Shown here in pieces: positions 5,704 to 27,431 of a stretch of DNA of 32,000 nt. The stretch is from Thermodesulfobacterium commune DSM 2178 (GTDB taxonomy: Bacteria; Desulfobacterota; Thermodesulfobacteria; Thermodesulfobacteriales; Thermodesulfobacteriaceae), in assembly GCF_000734015.1 (NCBI RefSeq), contig NZ_CP008796.1, positions 690,001 through 722,000 on the forward strand. The letters run 5' to 3'. A program made the translations under genes and the position numbers. The notes beneath the pieces are model-generated. The model did not search any database, was not told the origin of the DNA, and worked only from the letters and a program-made list of their open reading frames with translations. Within the stretch, counting starts at the first letter, position 1; every line of letters begins with the position of its first letter.

Positions 5704-7209
5704 TTAATCTGAAAAATAAGTTAAAATTGCCTCTACCAGACCTGGTATGGTATATTCTTTAGCCTCTATCTGTGGAGTAACACCATGCTTTATAAGTTCT
5801 TGAGAGGTAATCGGACCAATGGAAGCAAAAAGCGTATTTTTTAACTCTACTTCTTCTTCTAACTCGGACAGAAGCCTAAAAAAATTCTTAACCGTAGAAG
5901 AACTGGTAAAAGTTATGATATCTATACCTTGTTTTAACTCTTCTTTAAACGCAATTTTTGTCTCTTCTGGAAGGACGGTTTGATAGATCGGAACTACCTC
6001 TACAATGGCTCCAAGTTCTTCTAAACCCCTAGGTAACACATCTCTAGCTTCTTTAGCTCGAGCAATAAGCACCTTCTTTCCTTCGATAGGTATCTTCGAA
6101 AAAGCCTCTAAAAGCCCTTCTTGGGTAAAGTTTTTTTCAGGAATAAGGTCAGCCTTAATCCCCCAACCTTCTAAAGCTTCAGCCGTTGCCTTTCCTATTA
6201 CAGCTATCTTTAAATCCTTTAAAACCCTCAAATCCCTTTCGGTTTCTAACAGAGTTTTTATAAAAAATCTAACCCCATTTTCTGAGGTGAAAACCAGCCA
6301 ATCATAAAGGTTTAATCTTTCCAAAAACGCTGTATTACAAATTGGCACAACTTTTATCAAAGGTAACTCTACTACGTCTGCGCCAAGTTCTTCAAGCAAA
6401 AAAGAAAGTCTGCTTGCTTGTTCTCTGGTACGTGTAATAGCTATCCTTTTACCAAACAGAGGTTTCCTTTCAAACCAGTTAAAATCAGGTCTTAGTTTTA
6501 CCACCTCTCCTACCACGATGATAGCCGGAGGCTTTATCCCTGCTTTTTCTACCTCGGCTACGATGTTTTCTAGACATCCAGTAACTACTTTTTGCTTTGG
6601 AAGAGTTCCCCATTGTATTAAAGCTACCGGAGTTTTAGGGTCTTTGCCTTCTTTTATCAAATTTTCGACGATATATTTAAGATTTTTAACCCCCATCAAA
6701 AAAACTAAAGTTCCAAGTTTAGCTAAAGCTTTAAAATCGATTTTACTTTCAGGTTTTCCTTCTGCCTCATGTCCGGTGATGATGGCTAAGGTAGAGGTAT
6801 AGTCACGATGGGTAACAGGAATCCCAGCATAAGCCGGAACTGCAATCGCAGAGGTAACGCCAGGAACTACCTCAAAAGGAATCCCCTCCTTAACAAGCTC
6901 CTCTAGCTCTTCACCACCTCTACCAAAAAGAAAAGGATCTCCACCTTTAAGCCTTACGACCTTTTTCCCTTCCTTAGCTTTTTTTACCAAAAGTTTATTG
7001 ATTTCTTCCTGTGGTAATGTGTGTTCTCCACCTTTTTTACCTACATAGATCTTTTCAGCTCCTTCTTTACAAAAAGAAAGAAGTTTGGGGTTAGCTAAAT
7101 AGTCATATATTACTACCTCTGCTTGTTCTAAAATTCTTTTTCCTTTAAGAGTAAGAAGTTGGGGATCTCCTGGACCAGCACCTACCAAATATACCTTTCC
7201 TTGAGCCAT
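5704..7209 (-). CDS. cobA: Bifunctional uroporphyrinogen-III C-methyltransferase / uroporphyrinogen-III synthase (SUMT-HemD fusion)
   Basis: The N-terminal half has the SUMT signature VYLVGAGPGDPQLLTLKG...VVRLKGGDPFLFGRGGEE. The C-terminal roughly 250 aa is HemD-like. At 501 aa, the length fits the fusion. Confidence 0.9.
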   Translation of the reverse strand: MAQGKVYLVGAGPGDPQLLTLKGKRILEQAEVVIYDYLANPKLLSFCKEGAEKIYVGKKGGEHTLPQEEINKLLVKKAKEGKKVVRLKGGDPFLFGRGGEELEELVKEGIPFEVVPGVTSAIAVPAYAGIPVTHRDYTSTLAIITGHEAEGKPESKIDFKALAKLGTLVFLMGVKNLKYIVENLIKEGKDPKTPVALIQWGTLPKQKVVTGCLENIVAEVEKAGIKPPAIIVVGEVVKLRPDFNWFERKPLFGKRIAITRTREQASRLSFLLEELGADVVELPLIKVVPICNTAFLERLNLYDWLVFTSENGVRFFIKTLLETERDLRVLKDLKIAVIGKATAEALEGWGIKADLIPEKNFTQEGLLEAFSKIPIEGKKVLIARAKEARDVLPRGLEELGAIVEVVPIYQTVLPEETKIAFKEELKQGIDIITFTSSSTVKNFFRLLSELEEEVELKNTLFASIGPITSQELIKHGVTPQIEAKEYTIPGLVEAILTYFSD

Positions 7210-7224
7210 GTTTTATCTCCTCGA

Positions 7225-8139
7225 TTAGCTACTTTGATATATTTCAGATAAAATCTTTTCTCCTCCCAAGGAAAGAAGACGTTTTGCAAGCCTTTCCCCT
7301 AAAATTTCTGGATTTTCGACCTCACCCTTTTCAACCTGTTTATAGAATCTTTCTCCTTCTAAATCACTTATAAAACCCACCATAAAAATTTCGTTTCCTT
7401 TTAACCACGCATAGGCTCCAAGAGGAACTTGACAGCCACCTTCCAAAGTCCTTAAAAAGGCCCGCTCAGCCCTTATACATATCTCTGTAGGCTCATGGTG
7501 GAGACAGGAAAGTAAATTTTTTATCTTTAAGTCATCCTTTCTAATCTCTACAGCTAAAGCTCCTTGACCTACAGCTGGAACCATTTCTTCTATAGAAAAT
7601 CTTCTATATTCTATGCAAAGGTTTAACCTTTTTAAACCAGCCTCAGCAAGTACAATCCCTGCAAACTGGCCTTCTTTCCATTTTCTTAAACGGGTATCCA
7701 CATTTCCTCTTAGAGGTAAAATTTCTAAATCTTTTCTAATTTTTTTCAGTTGCGACATCCTTCTTAGACTACTTGTTCCTACCCTTGATTTAGAAGGTAG
7801 GTCTAAAAAATCCCGATCTGAAATCCAAACATCAAAAGGAGACTCCCTTTCAGGAATACAACCTATTTCTAAACCATCAGCCAGCACCGAAGGAACATCT
7901 TTAAGGCTATGAACTGCTAAATCTATCTCCTTTCTTAAAAGAGCCTCTTCTATCTCCTTAACAAAAAGGCCCTTTCCTCCTATTTTACTCAAAGGGGAGT
8001 CTACAATTTTATCTCCTGTGGTTTTGATGATTACCTTTTCAAAGTGTATATGTGGAAAAAACAATTTAAGACGACCTATTACCCAATCGGTTTGAGCTAA
8101 AGCTAACTTGCTTCCTCTGGTGCCAACCCTTATTTCCAC
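7225..8139 (-). CDS. hemC: Porphobilinogen deaminase (hydroxymethylbilane synthase)
   Basis: IRVGTRGSKLALAQT at the N-terminus, GNVDTRLRK, and the cofactor cysteine context LEGGCQVPLG. Confidence 0.95.
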   Translation of the reverse strand: MEIRVGTRGSKLALAQTDWVIGRLKLFFPHIHFEKVIIKTTGDKIVDSPLSKIGGKGLFVKEIEEALLRKEIDLAVHSLKDVPSVLADGLEIGCIPERESPFDVWISDRDFLDLPSKSRVGTSSLRRMSQLKKIRKDLEILPLRGNVDTRLRKWKEGQFAGIVLAEAGLKRLNLCIEYRRFSIEEMVPAVGQGALAVEIRKDDLKIKNLLSCLHHEPTEICIRAERAFLRTLEGGCQVPLGAYAWLKGNEIFMVGFISDLEGERFYKQVEKGEVENPEILGERLAKRLLSLGGEKILSEIYQSS

Positions 8140-21768: not shown

Positions 21769-22053
21769 ATGAATTGCAGTAGATTAAAAACCCTTATCAG
21801 AGATTGGTATCAAGAAGTAAGGTCTTTTACCCTTTCTCCTGTCAAAATGATGGATTTAGTAGAAAAACATGTGCAAAACTGTGAAGTTTGTCAACAAGAT
21901 GAAACTTTACCTTTGGAGTTAGAACAATTAAGAGAAATAATTAGAGTCCCTTATAAACCTCCTAAAGAAACTGACTTTAAATTCTCTGAAGACATAGAAT
22001 ACATCTATGATGAAGATTTAGAAGACTTAGAAGAGGAAGAGATTGAATCTTAG
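21769..22053 (+). CDS. Small soluble ZAS-like (H-x3-C-x2-C) protein with a strongly acidic tail
   Basis: AAGGAGG is the SD. C3...H34-x3-C38-x2-C41 (KHVQNCEVCQ) matches the zf-HC2 anti-sigma zinc motif. There is no TM segment, and the C-terminus is DEDLEDLEEEEIES. Confidence 0.6.
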   Translation: MNCSRLKTLIRDWYQEVRSFTLSPVKMMDLVEKHVQNCEVCQQDETLPLELEQLREIIRVPYKPPKETDFKFSEDIEYIYDEDLEDLEEEEIES

Positions 22054-22080
22054 GGGTGACTTATATTTAGCCACCCCTAA
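22050..22080. terminator. Shared hairpin between the convergent ZAS-like gene and the cytochrome operon (no T tract on either strand)
   Basis: TTAGGGGTG (22050-22058) pairs perfectly with CACCCCTAA (22072-22080) around a 13-nt loop. The stem includes the TAG stop of the plus-strand gene and ends 6 nt from the c3 stop. Confidence 0.45.
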
Positions 22081-22085
22081 TCTAT

Positions 22086-22454
22086 TTAAGACCTTTTATG
22101 GCAGTCATTACACTTAACTGGCGCTTGTTTACCTTCTTCACCGTTAACCTTCTTATGGCATTCAATACAGGTCTTATGGTAGGCATCCATAGCTTTTAAA
22201 GCTTTATCTTTAGCCTGAGCTATATCATGACATTCTACACATTTTTTTACTTCTTTAGTAGGATCGGCTTCTGCATGATGACATACTTTACAATCGATTT
22301 TATATACATCTACATGGTTTGCATGATTAAACTTCACAGCTGGAAATTTAGCTCCTTCCAGTTTTAATTGTAATTCCGTTGGAAGTGCAAAAACTAAAGT
22401 AACACAGAACAAAATTCCTCCTATGATTAACCCTCCCCAAACTTTCTTTTTCAT
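22086..22454 (-). CDS. Tetrahaem cytochrome c3 family protein (class III), with an N-terminal signal or anchor
   Basis: Four CxxCH motifs (CKVCH, CVECH, CIECH, CNDCH) and the FNHANH...CKVCHH pattern in 122 aa. The SD is GGGGGGG, 7 nt upstream of the ATG. Confidence 0.85.
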   Translation of the reverse strand: MKKKVWGGLIIGGILFCVTLVFALPTELQLKLEGAKFPAVKFNHANHVDVYKIDCKVCHHAEADPTKEVKKCVECHDIAQAKDKALKAMDAYHKTCIECHKKVNGEEGKQAPVKCNDCHKRS

Positions 22455-22478
22455 AGTTTTACCCCCCCTTGTTTTTAA

Positions 22479-23120
22479 TTAGTGCCCGGTATGTTCTTCA
22501 TGTTCTTCTTCATATCCGGTAAACATAGCTATGATGTGAGCTAAAGGTGTATGTCCTAAAGTACTTAAATAAATATGAACAAAAAGGAAAAATCCGTAAA
22601 ACACCCAAAGGCCATTGTGAATTAAAGAAACAATCTGAATACCTCCCATCAAACTTTCTAACCAAGCAAACTGAACAGGATCCCAAAGCACAAGACCTGT
22701 CAAAATTTGTAAAGGTATACAAAAGATCATGATGATAAAATAAAAAACCTGTTGTAGAGGATTAAATTTGTTATCAGGGGTTGGATGATGAGGGTTTTTC
22801 TCTCCTACCATGATACCATAGGCATAATACTTTGCTTGAGCAAAAGCTTTTTTAATAAAATCTACAGGTCTCCAAAAAGGAGGGATATAAATCTTAAAAA
22901 TTTTTCCGGTAAACAGATAGTAACATAACCAGATAAAATAATTAGCAAGCAAAATAAACCCTAACCAGCTATGTATCTTAACCGCACTTTCAAAAGACAT
23001 AAGATTTATCTTATCTACCAATCTGATCTGTAATCCGGTAATTATCAATACTATAAAACTGATAGCATTGATCCAGTGCCATATTCTTACAGGTAAAGGA
23101 TGTAAATATACCTTCTTCAT
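22479..23120 (-). CDS. Membrane cytochrome b subunit (PhsC/FdnI/HydC-type, four conserved His, presumably di-haem)
   Basis: LPVRIWHWINAISFIVLIITGLQIR start. Four hydrophobic helices carry His in WHW, KIHSW, LIHNG and FVHIY. The ATG overlaps the upstream stop (TAATG). Confidence 0.85.
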   Translation of the reverse strand: MKKVYLHPLPVRIWHWINAISFIVLIITGLQIRLVDKINLMSFESAVKIHSWLGFILLANYFIWLCYYLFTGKIFKIYIPPFWRPVDFIKKAFAQAKYYAYGIMVGEKNPHHPTPDNKFNPLQQVFYFIIMIFCIPLQILTGLVLWDPVQFAWLESLMGGIQIVSLIHNGLWVFYGFFLFVHIYLSTLGHTPLAHIIAMFTGYEEEHEEHTGH

Positions 23121-24793
23121 TATTTCCCCTCCCTTCTTTTTCTTCTAATAGGTGTGGTTATAATTCTTAAAGATAGATGCCCTAAACCAAAACCTATACC
23201 GCAAACCACAGCCAAAACAAACAATATATCTAAAACACTAATCCTTGACAGACCTAAAACATAAAAATCTCTAACATTTGGTATGGCATATACCGAATTT
23301 AAAATCTTTCTATCTACTAAGGTTTTTAAGGTTTTATCTCCTTCTTTACTGATTTCTAAAACTCCGGCAAACTTAGCCTCAGAACTATGACAAACAGTAC
23401 AATCTTTTATGGCTTCTTTCTTAGAAAGAATTTTATGAGCATCATTAGAATTTACTAAGTCTAATCTTCCTTTTAATTCAACTTTCACCTTCTGTTTAAC
23501 CGTATTCAAAAACTGCCAGAACTCTTTTTCCTGGACCAAACCATCTTTATTAAGATCTATCTTATTTTTTACCTCTTCAACCGGCCAGTTTAAAGCTTTA
23601 CTTAGATCTTCTACCGTTATGCCTGTTTTTTTAGCTTTATCTACCAAAGACAGCATCACTGCCTTTTCACCTTTTGCATGACACACACTACAAGAAGCAC
23701 TCTTAAAATGGACATCTACAAAGGATTCTAAGGTAAAAGGTGGATTATAGAGCCATTTACTATGAGCCTTCTTGGAGTCCTTATGGCAGGACAAACAAGA
23801 GTCGTTTAACTTTGCCATACTAACAGGTAAAACGTCATGGGCTTTATGACAGTTAGAACAATTAGGAGCATTAGGCTTGGATTCAGAAAGGGCTTTAAAA
23901 TGAATACTATCTTTGTAAGCCTTGGCCTCTTCTCCATGACAACTTGCACAGAGATTGAACTTTAACTCATTATTAGGTAAAATACGCGCCACTTTATGAT
24001 AATCATGACATCTTATACAGTCAGGAGCCTTCTCTTTCCCTTGATAAAAAGCCTTGGCATGGATACTTTTGTTAAATTGATCTACCTCTTTAGTATGACA
24101 TTGCTTACATATTTCTATAGCTTGTTTTCTATACTCTTTTAGTGATGCTATCTTTTTAATAGGATGCTCTGTTTTAGAATAACCTTTATGACAATCAGTA
24201 CACTTAAGGTCTTTATGTACAGAACTTAAAAGATGAGACCCATCTACCTTTACTGAAAGAACTTCACCATTTTCAAGCTTTTTAGTTATAGATTTACTAT
24301 GGCAAGTCAAACAATATTGATTTTCAGGTAAATTTTTACCTATTTTGGCTGGTTTAACCCCATGATATCCATGACATTCTATACAAGAAGCAGTCTTAGA
24401 AATGGTGTAGTGTACCTGATTTCTTCTTAATGTAGCATCGGTATGACATTTCTGACATATCTGTTTAGAAAGATTAGCCGCATACTCTCTTTTATTCTTA
24501 AATGTATATGAAGGATGTTTAGTTTTTGAAAAATCACTGTGACATACGATACACTGAAAGTTGCTATGAACAGATTGTTTGATTTCATTTAAGTTTACCT
24601 TAAGATTTAACTTTTCACCACTTTTTAACGTTTTGCTTAACTCAATTTTATGACAAGACATGCAGTATTCATTAAAACTTGCTTTTTGCTTCCATTCCTT
24701 AAAACTTAGGTCTTGAGAAGGTAAACTTCCGATAACCCTTTTAGAAGTAGCAGCAAGCAAACCGGTTGTCAACAAAAGCAGACTTAACAACAA
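23120..24793 (-). CDS. 13-haem c-type cytochrome with a C-terminal transmembrane anchor. The authentic start is probably the ATG at 24824, reached through an A9 tract.
   Basis: 13 CxxCH motifs counted by hand. A hydrophobic helix VLDILFVLAVVCGIGFGLG is followed by RRKRREGK. The track ORF starts at TTG 24793, with no SD and no charged n-region. An SD plus ATG lies at 24824 in the +1 frame (see findings). Confidence 0.85.
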   Translation of the reverse strand: MLLSLLLLTTGLLAATSKRVIGSLPSQDLSFKEWKQKASFNEYCMSCHKIELSKTLKSGEKLNLKVNLNEIKQSVHSNFQCIVCHSDFSKTKHPSYTFKNKREYAANLSKQICQKCHTDATLRRNQVHYTISKTASCIECHGYHGVKPAKIGKNLPENQYCLTCHSKSITKKLENGEVLSVKVDGSHLLSSVHKDLKCTDCHKGYSKTEHPIKKIASLKEYRKQAIEICKQCHTKEVDQFNKSIHAKAFYQGKEKAPDCIRCHDYHKVARILPNNELKFNLCASCHGEEAKAYKDSIHFKALSESKPNAPNCSNCHKAHDVLPVSMAKLNDSCLSCHKDSKKAHSKWLYNPPFTLESFVDVHFKSASCSVCHAKGEKAVMLSLVDKAKKTGITVEDLSKALNWPVEEVKNKIDLNKDGLVQEKEFWQFLNTVKQKVKVELKGRLDLVNSNDAHKILSKKEAIKDCTVCHSSEAKFAGVLEISKEGDKTLKTLVDRKILNSVYAIPNVRDFYVLGLSRISVLDILFVLAVVCGIGFGLGHLSLRIITTPIRRKRREGK

Positions 24794-24823
24794 GAAAGAA
24801 AAATATAGCGTCTTTTTTTTTCA

Positions 24824-25996
24824 TTATTTAACCCCCACAGGAATATTTGTATGATATCCGTGGCAATCAATACACATAAATCTTTTATCTCTAGCTACTA
24901 TAGCATGACCTGGATGTTTAGAAATGCTTTCATAAGTATGACATTTAGTACAACGAGAAGCCATTTCTTTAGTGTAATCTTTTATAGATCTAATGTTAAT
25001 AGGTTTAGGATGAAAATCTGTGTTATAAATATCATAATGGCAAGCAAAACAACCTATTTTACCGTGAGGAGTTTTGGCAAATTTTTCTGAATTAACATAA
25101 AGATACATCTTATCACCGTTACCTAAAACCTTAGGCAACCTTTCTACTTTATGGCACTTTATACACTCTTGGGTCTGTTTTCTTACTAATTTGATAGGTT
25201 TAACATAGTGAGAATTATGACATTCAGAACAAAGGGTCTTTCCCTCTTTTACTATGTTTTGATGAAAAGAAGAAAGTCCGGACGCAGGATGACAGGTTAA
25301 ACAGTTTTGGTTTACCCCTTTGGAATAGCTATAACGACTTTCTATTTTGATCGGTTTAGGATGGGTAGATTTATCAATATCCTGGTGACAGAATAAACAG
25401 TGAACCTTATTTCCGTGCGCAGAATCATAAAACTTCTTTGAATCTACATAAAGAGCCATCTTTTCTCCATTAGGTAAAACCTTATGAAGCCTCTCTAACT
25501 TATGACACTTTAAACAATCTTTAGCAATCCTATCAAATTCCTCTTTTATAGGTTTAATGTAATGTGAACCGTGACACTCTGCACAAGAGAGTTTATTTTC
25601 TTTTACTATGTTTTTATGGATAGGAGAAAGACTTTCGATAGCATGGCAATTTACACAATTAGCAGAAACTATCTTTTTATATTCCCTTACACTGGCAATT
25701 TTCATCGGTCTTGGATGTTCCTTTACGTTAAGGTCGGCATGACAAGAAAGACAATCCATACTTCCATGAACAGAGGCCTGAAACTTCTCAGGGTCTACAT
25801 AAAGAGCCATCTTTTCTCCATTAGGTAAAACCTTATGAAGCCTCTCTAATTTATGACACTTTAAACAGGCATCGTTTGAACCACTGCTACTTGCTATGGA
25901 CGATTTATTAAAGGTTAGAGGAAGAAAAAAACTGATCCCCAACAGAACTCCAGATAAACACAACCCAAGAAAAAAATATCTAAAAATTTTTCCCAT
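24824..25996 (-). CDS. 12-haem c-type cytochrome built from three tandem 117-aa tetrahaem modules
   Basis: 12 CxxCH motifs. The first Cys of each module is at residues 46, 163 and 280 in track numbering. The start is set at ATG 25996 (MGKIFRYFF...) because GGGGG (26007-26003) lies 6 nt upstream. The track's TTG at 26002 abuts the SD. Confidence 0.85.
   Translation of the reverse strand: MGKIFRYFFLGLCLSGVLLGISFFLPLTFNKSSIASSSGSNDACLKCHKLERLHKVLPNGEKMALYVDPEKFQASVHGSMDCLSCHADLNVKEHPRPMKIASVREYKKIVSANCVNCHAIESLSPIHKNIVKENKLSCAECHGSHYIKPIKEEFDRIAKDCLKCHKLERLHKVLPNGEKMALYVDSKKFYDSAHGNKVHCLFCHQDIDKSTHPKPIKIESRYSYSKGVNQNCLTCHPASGLSSFHQNIVKEGKTLCSECHNSHYVKPIKLVRKQTQECIKCHKVERLPKVLGNGDKMYLYVNSEKFAKTPHGKIGCFACHYDIYNTDFHPKPINIRSIKDYTKEMASRCTKCHTYESISKHPGHAIVARDKRFMCIDCHGYHTNIPVGVK
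25443..25516. repeat. Intragenic direct repeat, copy A (74 bp, 73/74 identical to copy B)
   Basis: Encodes CLKCHKLERLHKVLPNGEKMALYVD at the start of module 2. It is offset exactly 351 bp from copy B. Confidence 0.9.
25794..25867. repeat. Intragenic direct repeat, copy B
   Basis: The same 74 bp with one C/T difference (25499 vs 25850). It encodes the identical 25 aa at the start of module 1. Confidence 0.9.
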
Positions 25997-26053
25997 TATC
26001 AACCCCCATAAAGAAAGATTTTAAAATAACCCTATTTTGCCTATTAGATATAG

Positions 26054-26082
26054 ATATTATATAAGCTCAATCCTTAAGTCAA
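26054..26082 (-). promoter_or_regulatory. Strong sigma-70-like promoter of the cytochrome operon
   Basis: The minus strand reads TTGACT (26082-26077), then TATAAT at 15 nt or TAATAT at 17 nt spacing (26061-26054). It lies about 55 nt upstream of the ATG at 25996. Confidence 0.5.
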
Positions 26083-26156: not shown

Positions 26157-27431
26157 TTATTTTTTTCTTTTATCTATCACTCGTACAGCTTTTCCTGGAA
26201 CCCTTTGAATGGTGCCTTCAGGAACGATTTGAATCTTACTTCTAAAACCTAAAAAATCATAAAGTTCTAAGTTTAGCCTCTCCATTTCTTGATCGGTTAA
26301 CCCCCCATCGGTTTTTTCTACAATGATGGTCATCTCATCTTTGCCTTTTACATTTTCTATTACCAATTGATAATACGGAGCAAGTCCTTTGTACTTCAAA
26401 AGTATAGCCTCTATCTGAGAAGGATAAAAATTTACCCCCTTTACCTTCAACATATCGTCTGTTCTGCCTTTAATTCTATCTATTCTAACGTGAGTTCTTC
26501 CACACTCGCAGGGTTCGTAACTTATTATCTTAGATATGTCTCTTGTTCTATACCTGATAAGAGGCAAGCCTTCTCTGGTAAGAGTAGTAACCACTATTTC
26601 TCCTTCTTCTCCTAAAGGCAATACCTCACCTGTTTCAGGATGTACGATTTCTATGATATAATGATCTTCCCAAACATGAATGCCTTTTCTTGCTTCACAA
26701 TCTATCCCTAAACCTACTCCCCCGGTTTCTGTCATCCCTATGATATCAAAGGTTTTAACCCCCATCATCTCTTCTATCCTTTTTCTGTATTCATCTGACC
26801 AGGTTTCAGCACCTAAAATAGCTACCCGAAGATTAGTTTTTCTAAAATCAAACCCATTTTCTTGAGCTACTTCGATAAGTCTTGCTGGATAAGAAGCTAT
26901 AGCCCCTATGGCGGTAACCCCCAAATCTTTTATAAGTTTAAGTTGCATAAGAGTTCTTCCAGCACCTGCTGGAACGATAAAACATCCTAAGGTTTCTGCT
27001 CCATAATGAAAACCAAAACCTCCGTTAAATAACCCAAAGGAAGGCATAATCTGTAACCTGTCTTTTGAGGTAAGCCCAGCACAAGCCAAGCATCGAGCCA
27101 TTATCTCACCCCACTGAGCCACATCATTTTTAGTCATAAGGTTTAATACTGGGATTCCTGTAGTCCCTGAACTCATATGCATTCTTACACAATCTGAAGG
27201 ATCTACAGCTATGTGTCCAAAAGGATAACCATCCCTTAAGTCATCTTTTGTCGTAAAAGGCAGGTATTTTAAATCATCTAAACTTTTTATATCTTCAGGA
27301 TGGATGTCTTTAATCTTCTCTTTTAACATAGATTTAGAATTTTTAAGAAATGCGATGGTTTTTCTTAATCTACCAAGCTGAATTTTTTCAATCTCTTCTC
27401 TTGGTAAAGTTTCCATCTTAGGATTAAACAT
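26157..27431 (-). CDS. Phenylacetate-CoA ligase family (PaaK/F390-synthetase-like) adenylate-forming enzyme
   Basis: N-terminus FNPKMETLPREEIEKIQLGRLRKT and AMP-binding motif MSSGTTGIPV. The length and C-terminal lid domain are typical of PaaK-like proteins. The substrate cannot be inferred. Confidence 0.85.
   Translation of the reverse strand: MFNPKMETLPREEIEKIQLGRLRKTIAFLKNSKSMLKEKIKDIHPEDIKSLDDLKYLPFTTKDDLRDGYPFGHIAVDPSDCVRMHMSSGTTGIPVLNLMTKNDVAQWGEIMARCLACAGLTSKDRLQIMPSFGLFNGGFGFHYGAETLGCFIVPAGAGRTLMQLKLIKDLGVTAIGAIASYPARLIEVAQENGFDFRKTNLRVAILGAETWSDEYRKRIEEMMGVKTFDIIGMTETGGVGLGIDCEARKGIHVWEDHYIIEIVHPETGEVLPLGEEGEIVVTTLTREGLPLIRYRTRDISKIISYEPCECGRTHVRIDRIKGRTDDMLKVKGVNFYPSQIEAILLKYKGLAPYYQLVIENVKGKDEMTIIVEKTDGGLTDQEMERLNLELYDFLGFRSKIQIVPEGTIQRVPGKAVRVIDKRKK

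Follow-up and report, generated by a model that had tools for sequence, protein, structure and literature searches.

An enlarged CbcBA-type multihaem cytochrome c/cytochrome b gene cluster in Thermodesulfobacterium commune, a probable link between periplasmic cytochrome c3 and menaquinone

We analysed 32,000 nucleotides of the hot-spring sulfate reducer Thermodesulfobacterium commune DSM 2178 (positions 690,001 to 722,000 of contig NZ_CP008796.1, hereafter the window, numbered from its first letter) and describe a minus-strand cluster of four genes, A to D, encoding three multihaem cytochromes c and one cytochrome b. Genes B and C are related to CbcA and CbcB, the subunits of a Geobacter inner-membrane oxidoreductase, and are accompanied by a dodecahaem cytochrome (A) and a tetrahaem cytochrome c3 (D). 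We propose that the cluster probably specifies an enlarged CbcBA-type inner-membrane menaquinone/menaquinol:cytochrome c oxidoreductase, whose likeliest role would be that of a stand-alone cytochrome c3:menaquinone oxidoreductase.

The open reading frame (ORF) listing of the window places A, B, C and D in that order between 22086 and 25996. The CxxCH motif occurs 12 times in A, 13 times in B, four times in D and not at all in C, so that the 29 c-type haem motifs in four co-oriented genes described in a first-pass annotation of the sequence are borne out. A, B and D each open with a hydrophobic, signal-like segment, and their histidine counts leave enough further residues for bis-histidine ligation of every haem, which points to electron-transfer haems without an open catalytic site. 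Gene C matches PF01292 (E value 6e-29) and has four hydrophobic helices, with His15, His50, His168 and His182 invariant in 24 and in 31 homologues, and is thus the four-helix, four-histidine cytochrome b of the earlier description. In its AlphaFold2 (AF2) model, with a predicted local distance difference test score (pLDDT) of 75, the nearest folds are FdnI (1kqf_C; Foldseek probability 1.00, template modelling score 0.61) and HyaC (4gd3_A). Gene D had been called a tetrahaem c3, and its PF02085 match, its four CxxCH motifs and its similarity to Desulfovibrio and Desulfomicrobium c3 structures (E 1e-9) agree; it falls below the TmcA equivalog cutoff (62 versus 114 bits). We also considered D as a fragment of the Geobacter cytochrome CbcC and rejected this at E 1e-3 only.

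A homologue search with C gave only relatives of at least 64% identity, and the comparison with Geobacter was reached through the Protein Data Bank (PDB) match of B. The only significant PDB relative of B is 28pb_A, a 278-residue 'cytochrome c' with seven CxxCH motifs, which aligns with residues 237-484 (E 3e-14). A structure of the soluble domain of CbcA has reportedly been described by Antunes et al. in 2026. Searching with 28pb_A led to proteins of 349-350 residues in Geobacter, Geotalea and Desulfuromonadales, one of which (P0241, 98% identical to 28pb_A) sits in locus L055. Besides this seven-haem protein, the locus encodes a sigma54 regulator in divergent orientation, two small ORFs and one response regulator, a 218-residue PF01292 protein, a 329-residue 12-haem protein made of c7 domains, and one HAMP and one Yip1 protein. 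Gene for gene, this fits the published cbc5/bccR cluster of G. sulfurreducens, in which CbcA carries seven haems and a C-terminal helix, CbcB is a dihaem cytochrome b and CbcC is a dodecahaem cytochrome (Joshi, Chan & Bond 2021; review), and the L055 proteins were therefore taken as CbcA, CbcB and CbcC. Indirect points suggest that 28pb is CbcA itself: seven CxxCH motifs in 278 residues, the place of P0241 in the cbc5 order, and the entry '2BPB' in the review, which we take as a misprint of 28PB.

Gene C and CbcB of L055 are 41-42% identical over 207 residues (BLASTP, E 2e-55), and share the four transmembrane histidines and the motifs NPHHxTPDxKFNP and GHTPLAH. Residues 237-565 of B align with residues 29-348 of CbcA at 27% identity over 350 columns (E 9e-28); the alignment takes in the last isolated CxxCH, an EF-hand-type loop (DLNKDGLVQEKE in B, DTNGDSYISLAE in CbcA) and the histidine-bearing membrane helix, and the seven haems of CbcA correspond to haems 7-13 of B. 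The order of c-type before b-type gene is the same at both loci: in L055 cbcB begins at 8054, just past the end of cbcA at 8050, and in T. commune genes B and C share a true TAATG stop/start overlap at 23122-23118. On the strength of these alignments we regard B and C as homologues of CbcA and CbcB. What had been noted as an architectural resemblance to CbcBA is now homology, and the 'undescribed composition' claimed earlier survives in part. The pair falls inside a genetically characterised complex family, an outcome that the annotation had named as one that would count against its claim, and the novelty is to that extent refuted; the expansion to 13-25 haems, the split subunit and the c3 are new, and no catalytic module, the other such outcome, adjoins the relatives examined.

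Like Geobacter CbcBA, the T. commune cluster has neither an iron-sulfur (Fe-S) nor a catalytic subunit, and in both the b gene is followed by one more gene for a periplasmic multihaem cytochrome of class III type. The differences are considerable. Seven haems in CbcA compare with 13 in B (25 with A), and the extra N-terminal tetrahaem modules are not found in Geobacter. CbcC, CbcD and CbcE follow the b gene in Geobacter, whereas here a tetrahaem c3 takes their place, and although Geobacter has the periplasmic dodecahaem CbcC beside cbcBA, A is not homologous to it. The BccR/sigma54 regulator and the small upstream ORFs of the Geobacter cluster have no counterpart at the T. commune locus. The host here is a thermophilic sulfate reducer, and electron flow is probably opposite.

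With one A removed from a run at its start (discussed below), gene B encodes 567 residues beginning MKKKTLYFSF, identical to a public Thermodesulfobacterium 'MULTISPECIES' protein (P0001). It comprises a signal peptide, one and a half tetrahaem modules, the seven-haem CbcA core and a C-terminal membrane helix; the 13 CxxCH motifs, the single C-terminal helix and the RRKRREGK tail reported in the annotation are all seen. His549 in the anchor is invariant in 12 and in 58 homologues and aligns with a histidine in the CbcA anchor. An AF2 model of B (pLDDT 85.9) gave no significant Foldseek match in a PDB library extending to 2026-04-08, apparently without 28pb, and haem-free multihaem folds align poorly. 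The non-haem insert of the core holds the EF-hand-type loop, which, read from the sequence, fits canonical positions 1, 3, 5, 6, 8 and 12 and aligns with DTNNDNYISLAE / DTNGDSYISLAE of CbcA. Residues 410-429 give a weak match to PF13202, D423 is nearly invariant, and several CbcA homologues carry precomputed PF13202 matches. This pattern suggests a periplasmic Ca2+ site in the CbcA family.

Gene A starts at ATG 25996, eight nucleotides (nt) downstream of a GGGGG Shine-Dalgarno sequence, and its product, identical to AIH03955.1 of T. commune DSM 2178, consists of three tandem tetrahaem modules of 117 residues. T. geofontis-like genomes and Candidatus T. syntrophicum encode proteins of 904 residues and 25 haems whose alignment runs through A and continues into B, and A is therefore the N-terminus of a CbcA-like protein that has become separate. 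This split from the fused 25-haem form is seen in the T. commune group, where B has gained its own signal peptide. The annotation had treated the 12-haem protein as a subunit type of its own, a view that does not hold for an N-terminal extension kept fused in the 904-residue sister proteins. Orthology of A to CbcC was rejected as well: identity is 22% with many gaps and at motif level only, and CbcC is built of c7-type domains. At the DNA level, gene A consists of 351-nt tandem repeats with a 112-nt stretch within at 88%/71% identity. As a separate observation, the tetrahaem modules of one protein agree completely or almost completely over their first ~25 residues, and this segment varies from species to species (gene A at 25054-25867; proteins P0004 and P0020). 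CLKCHKLERLHKVLPNGEKMALYVD is present twice in gene A and CLRCHSVKRLPKVLSNGEKMDLYVD three times in P0004, a pattern suggestive of gene conversion among the repeats.

When genomes were scanned with an alignment of B homologues, 43 loci came up. At 23 of these (L007-L020, L022-L030) a C-like gene comes directly after a B-like gene that has the C-terminal domain, and their stop and start usually overlap or abut. At L021 the contig ends inside the B-like gene. The pair occurs in Thermodesulfobacterium, Thermodesulfovibrio, other Nitrospirota, Thermosulfidibacter and beta-proteobacteria, with haem counts of 9, 13, 17, 21 and 25, in steps of four, and seven in Geobacter. In an exhaustive search, the C-terminal 228 residues of B found only 134 cluster representatives, mostly of 340-470 residues, so that long forms are in the minority. 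A c3 gene follows the b gene in the loci of Thermodesulfobacterium and Thermodesulfovibrio, the two sulfate-reducing genera. In Candidatus T. torris the 17-haem gene is accompanied by a cytochrome b gene, with the c3 gene two genes downstream of the 17-haem gene, and the best match of the 17-haem protein among those listed is a Seep-SRB2 protein. The 26-haem cytochrome described for this organism (PMC9539880) was considered as a homologue of the cluster and set aside as a different, shorter protein of 633 residues. Beta-proteobacterial nine-haem versions have sigma54 response regulators, kinases and NapC/NirT-type cytochromes as neighbours, a setting like that in Geobacter.

The pair stands alone wherever we looked. 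No Fe-S, NrfD, molybdopterin or hydrogenase gene lies beside it in ~30 related loci, no CxxCxxCxxxC protein occurs within ~5 kb in 12 related loci, no known catalytic domain was seen at that distance in the loci compared, and Pfam and NCBIfam searches found no Fe-S or catalytic gene among the flanking ORFs of the window. The absence of a catalytic or Fe-S subunit, as first annotated, thus extends beyond T. commune. Nor was an outer-membrane conduit or porin gene found in the window or beside any homologue examined. Two variants of the surroundings may be recorded. In a Thermodesulfovibrio yellowstonii-like locus (L050, 4939-7885), a small thioredoxin-like gene precedes the 17-haem/cytochrome b/c3 cluster, and ResB and CcsA-type cytochrome c maturation genes lie divergently upstream. 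In two Thermodesulfobacteriota metagenome-assembled genomes (MAGs; L020, 16590-18307, and L022, 16749-18497), the 21-haem/cytochrome b pair lacks a c3 gene, and a few kb downstream are two adjacent small 12-haem cytochromes of 261-305 residues.

Joining the periplasmic c3 pool to the menaquinone pool or to the cytoplasm is a likely job that the cluster shares with Qrc and Hmc/Tmc/Nhc/Ohc of Desulfovibrio; gene D, moreover, resembles TmcA and type I c3. They differ in that the quinone site here lies in a dihaem cytochrome b and that NrfC-like, NrfD-like, molybdopterin-like and CCG proteins are lacking. In keeping with the annotation, which had found no Fe-S subunit of the Hmc, Tmc, Nhc or Ohc type, none is present in the window flanks or in 12 related loci; NrfC-like Fe-S, NrfD-like and cytoplasmic CCG proteins are absent from the flanking ORFs, and the HmcA model reaches 29.5 bits against a cutoff of 400, with TmcA below its cutoff as given above. 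The cluster belongs with QrcABCD no more than with Hmc or Tmc, the QrcA model scoring 29.9 and 22.8 against 180 bits and none of the other subunits being encoded nearby in the window. With FdnI/FdnH and HyaC/HyaA of Escherichia coli the cluster shares the fold of C and a periplasmic subunit that sets one C-terminal helix beside a four-helix dihaem cytochrome b. The partner here, however, is a multihaem cytochrome c and not an Fe-S protein, a catalytic subunit is absent, and C resembles HyaC in sequence only marginally (E 0.17). CbcL also combines a multihaem cytochrome c with a PF01292-type b domain, and distant matches to the haem region of B include fusions of ~940 residues; published CbcL, by contrast, is one polypeptide with a nine-haem domain and six helices, whereas the genes here are separate and C has four helices. 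Comparison of C with the b domain of one CbcL-type fusion (P0114, which is not G. sulfurreducens CbcL itself) was not significant (E 0.05).

Gene content, homology, modularity and stand-alone synteny are observed; the account of complex formation, direction of flow and energy coupling that follows is proposed. Gene C would be the quinone-reactive, four-helix dihaem cytochrome b, against which the C-terminal helix of B would pack as the anchors of FdnH and HyaA do against FdnI and HyaC. The periplasmic part of B would contribute the seven-haem CbcA core and six more haems, A would add a 12-haem stretch with its own signal peptide, and D would be a dedicated tetrahaem c3 docking onto this all-bis-histidine wire. 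As there is no catalytic site, the unit would only move electrons between the periplasmic cytochrome pool and menaquinone. A periplasmic hydrogenase, a formate dehydrogenase or a partner cell could supply electrons, which would pass from c3 through A and B to the b haems and menaquinone, to be withdrawn again by Qmo and DsrMK. The half-loop would be electrogenic if, as in FdnI, the cytoplasmic-side haem were the site of menaquinone reduction.

Cytochrome c3 is the usual electron collector in sulfate reducers. Inward flow appears more plausible than outward flow in these organisms, on account of the linked c3, the reported absence of Qrc, the enzymes of Thermodesulfovibrio and the gene trio of Candidatus T. 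torris. Thermodesulfobacteriales are reported to lack Qrc (PMC10553843), and Thermodesulfovibrio has a periplasmic hydrogenase and formate dehydrogenase without membrane subunits, and a class III cytochrome (PMC5165239). The Candidatus T. torris trio is transcribed during methane oxidation at 70 degrees C, with centred log-ratio (CLR) values of 1.5 for the c3 gene, higher than the genome average, and -0.15 for the 17-haem gene. A precedent comes from Seep-SRB2, syntrophic sulfate-reducing partners of ANME (anaerobic methanotrophic archaea), in which CbcBA has been proposed to supply the quinone pool with electrons taken from periplasmic cytochromes (Murali et al. 2023, PMC10553843). The proposed role in a Qrc-less sulfate reducer is the same; the Seep-SRB2 genes, in contrast, are described as acquired from Desulfuromonadales, and no c3 gene or split subunit is described for them.

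Several points weigh against our proposal. B is only 27% identical to CbcA and has almost twice as many haems, and the BccR/sigma54 regulatory context of Geobacter is absent at the T. commune locus. Expression of the Candidatus T. torris genes is only about average. The inward direction draws on literature about genomes other than that of T. commune, and Thermodesulfovibrio has an Hmc complex (PMC5165239), so that a replacement for Qrc would not be strictly needed there. Finally, the start of B is frameshifted in DSM 2178, B is interrupted in T. hveragerdense and A is interrupted in one MAG, and these interruptions could mean that the system is dispensable (in culture).

Two other functional readings have to be set against a c3:menaquinone oxidoreductase. 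The same complex might run outward as in Geobacter, C oxidising menaquinol and B, A and c3 passing the electrons on to extracellular or periplasmic acceptors of low potential, such as Fe(III), electrodes or sulfur compounds, in a low-yield disposal route. This is the only direction genetically shown in the family, CbcBA being needed below about -0.21 V and lowering growth yield (Joshi, Chan & Bond 2021); a 25-haem chain, estimated from known haem spacing, could in principle be long enough for much of the periplasm, and the regulators and NapC/NirT-type cytochromes beside the beta-proteobacterial homologues recall Geobacter. The hosts are sulfate reducers, however, no outer-membrane conduit or porin gene accompanies the cluster in the window or beside the homologues examined, the dedicated c3 is linked to it only in the two sulfate-reducing genera, and a literature search for Fe(III)-reducing activity in T. 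commune brought up no usable result, and we therefore consider outward flow unlikely. Alternatively, a catalytic enzyme whose genes lie elsewhere (a thiosulfate or polysulfide reductase, a hydrogenase or a formate dehydrogenase) could have C as its membrane anchor and quinone site, and the cytochromes would feed this enzyme. PhsC is indeed the best NCBIfam match of C, followed by hydrogenase cytochrome b and FdnI, and homologues are often named 'thiosulfate reductase cytochrome b subunit' or 'Ni/Fe-hydrogenase b-type cytochrome subunit' in databases. Yet C scores below the curated cutoff of all three models (130 versus 204 bits for PhsC, 81 versus 121 and 53 versus 116 for the others). At all loci examined the C-like gene overlaps or abuts a multihaem gene with the invariant histidine in its C-terminal helix and never adjoins a molybdopterin, Fe-S or hydrogenase gene, and CbcB is by far the closest characterised relative (E 2e-55 versus 0.17 for HyaC). 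Membership in PhsABC, FdnGHI or a [NiFe]-hydrogenase, with which only the fold is common, is thus most improbable.

A further question is whether DSM 2178 itself still makes the complex. Directly after the ATG of gene B its sequence has nine A residues (A9) where relatives have eight (A8), and the ORF that now begins at the ATG (24824-24822) is out of frame and only 27 codons long. TAA TGA separates A from B, which share a reading frame, and the first in-frame start of B as written is TTG 24793, at which the charged head of the signal peptide is lost. Eight related sequences have A8: all six MAG or metagenome contigs fetched through the identical intact protein, T. hveragerdense, in which it was read, and T. 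thermophilum, for which it was inferred from gene coordinates. Five of the six contigs were aligned to the window and are 99.4-99.8% identical over ~19 kb, the A-run being the sole indel private to the window. As A9 recurs in the Joint Genome Institute (JGI) draft JQLF01000005.1 and in an independent Logan assembly, which makes three assemblies of the lineage, we take it as a real allele, and a sequencing error is ruled out. The annotation had proposed TAATG overlaps at both junctions and stoichiometric co-translation. The B/C overlap stands; at A/B the letters are present (24826-24822), but the ATG is out of frame with B and the frameshift breaks the junction in DSM 2178, whereas with A8 it works as described. 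GenBank numbers A, C and D consecutively (AIH03955, AIH03954 and AIH03953) and skips B, and RefSeq calls of B have 546 or 551 residues without an intact signal peptide.

Since the run after the start codon removes the normal start of B, the complex in DSM 2178 may be reduced or absent, unless slippage on A9 restores the frame. RNA polymerase slippage on a run of nine A residues could restore the frame in part of the transcripts. That the cluster in this strain is decaying or switched off, with A9 blocking export and haem loading of B and leaving no functional complex, is a possibility to be taken seriously, though we lean against it. It would explain the confinement of A9 to this lineage against A8 in the relatives, the dead-end ORF behind the ATG, the missing GenBank protein and the RefSeq calls of B without an intact signal peptide, and it is in line with the independent 1-nt indel that splits B in T. 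hveragerdense and with the split of A in one MAG. Against it, A, C, D and what remains of B are wholly intact, at 98-100% identity to functional-looking alleles, so any inactivation would be very recent; slippage, as said, could rescue some transcripts, and the in-frame TTG still yields a hydrophobic N-terminus. The two splits deserve a separate description. In T. hveragerdense (L008), B is divided into 421 and 139 residues by a 1-nt difference in a T-run (compare window position 23570), and in MAG contig L001 (8674-10001) A is divided into 67 and 340 residues at a point within the repeats where alignment with the window is lost. Either may be a real disruption or an assembly artefact in repeats. 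A more far-reaching scenario, which we offer as speculation and hold doubtful, is that the CbcA scaffold was lengthened stepwise by tetrahaem-module duplication, from seven to 25 haems, into a membrane-anchored wire able to span most of the periplasm. With c3 it would then form the main energy-conserving, quinone-reducing entry for periplasmic or interspecies electrons in Qrc-less thermophilic sulfate reducers of two phyla, the 12 + 13 split would make part of the wire detachable, and the A-run would act as an on/off switch.

Regulatory signals around the cluster are less clear than had been thought. The promoter TTGACT...TATAAT of the annotation cannot be upheld as written: TATAAT needs a 15-nt spacer, and a 17-nt spacer gives TAATAT. 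Promoter-grade matches in the region (24 observed versus 19.3 +/- 5.0 expected from shuffled sequence) are moreover at chance frequency; the placement of this promoter-like site is plausible. Between C and D, the 24-nt gap and its G7 Shine-Dalgarno sequence are both present as annotated. The hairpin said to close the unit is a real structure, but its role as a terminator is not borne out, there being no U-tract and no call by the intrinsic-terminator scan. Coordinates of all features are collected in Table 1.

Table 1. Features of the cytochrome cluster, in window coordinates
Feature	Position	Strand	Remarks
Promoter-like site TTGACT-17-TAATAT	26054..26082	-	160-nt gap between paaK-like gene and gene A; 9/12 match
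Gene A, periplasmic dodecahaem cytochrome c, 390 aa from ATG	24824..25996	-	12 CxxCH; three tandem modules
Gene B, CbcA-like 13-haem cytochrome c	23120..24824	-	567 aa if A8; 557 aa from TTG 24793 as written
A9 run directly after gene B ATG	24813..24821	-	relatives A8; ATG 24824-24822 out of frame
CbcA-homologous part of B, residues 237-565	23129..24115	-	covers all of mature Geobacter CbcA
EF-hand-type loop DLNKDGLVQEKE, B residues 423-434, non-haem insert of CbcA core	23522..23557	-	pattern D-x-N-x-D-G-x-V-x-x-x-E
C-terminal membrane anchor of B, then RRKRREGK	23168..23242	-	hydropathy; His549 codon 23177-23179
Gene C, CbcB-like four-helix dihaem cytochrome b, 213 aa	22479..23120	-	start overlaps B stop (TAATG)
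Gene D, tetrahaem cytochrome c3 with signal peptide, 122 aa	22086..22454	-	PF02085, E 8e-18; 4 CxxCH + 4 further His
Hairpin, GC-rich, 11 bp	22051..22079	.	-20 kcal/mol, z = -4.4; between convergent D and 94-aa ORF

The neighbours of the cluster are genes for a PaaK-family ligase, an archaemetzincin, a 94-residue protein and tryptophanyl-tRNA synthetase (TrpRS, trpS), and the rest of the window is housekeeping. The product of the paaK-like gene (26157-27431, minus strand) scores 400-413 bits on PaaK models with cutoffs of 646-700, and these scores, well under the cutoffs, make it a ligase of the PaaK/F390-synthetase family; such a gene lies directly upstream of the cytochrome gene in L020 and L022 and not in L009 and L051. 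The 94-residue, acidic-tailed ORF (21769-22053, plus strand) has an HxxxCxxC motif (HVQNCEVC) and no Pfam or NCBIfam match, and is conserved, in convergent orientation between the cluster and trpS, in Thermodesulfobacterium loci L001-L006, L009, L020, L022 and L051. Some 15 kb from the cluster, at 5704-8139 on the minus strand, are genes of tetrapyrrole synthesis for a fused uroporphyrinogen-III methyltransferase/synthase and a porphobilinogen deaminase.

The architecture and the family are already known. The literature has also dealt with homologues of CbcBA from other phyla and with reverse operation of the complex in sulfate reducers (PMC10553843). The modular expansion to 13-25 haems, the 12 + 13 split, the linked c3 and the natural frameshift allele in the type strain are new. 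The occurrence of the cluster in Thermodesulfobacterium and Thermodesulfovibrio is also new; the genome papers of both did not discuss it, and our literature search found no paper linking Thermodesulfovibrio with CbcBA. The cluster offers a concrete candidate for the link between periplasmic cytochromes and menaquinone in sulfate reducers outside the Desulfovibrio model, conserved in Thermodesulfovibrio and in Thermodesulfobacterium, including syntrophic partners of methane- and alkane-oxidising archaea. The presence of cbcBA in ordinary sulfate reducers as well bears on its use as a metagenomic marker of extracellular electron transfer. The frameshift allele of the type strain, set against the intact alleles of its close relatives, provides a ready-made comparison for the function of the complex.

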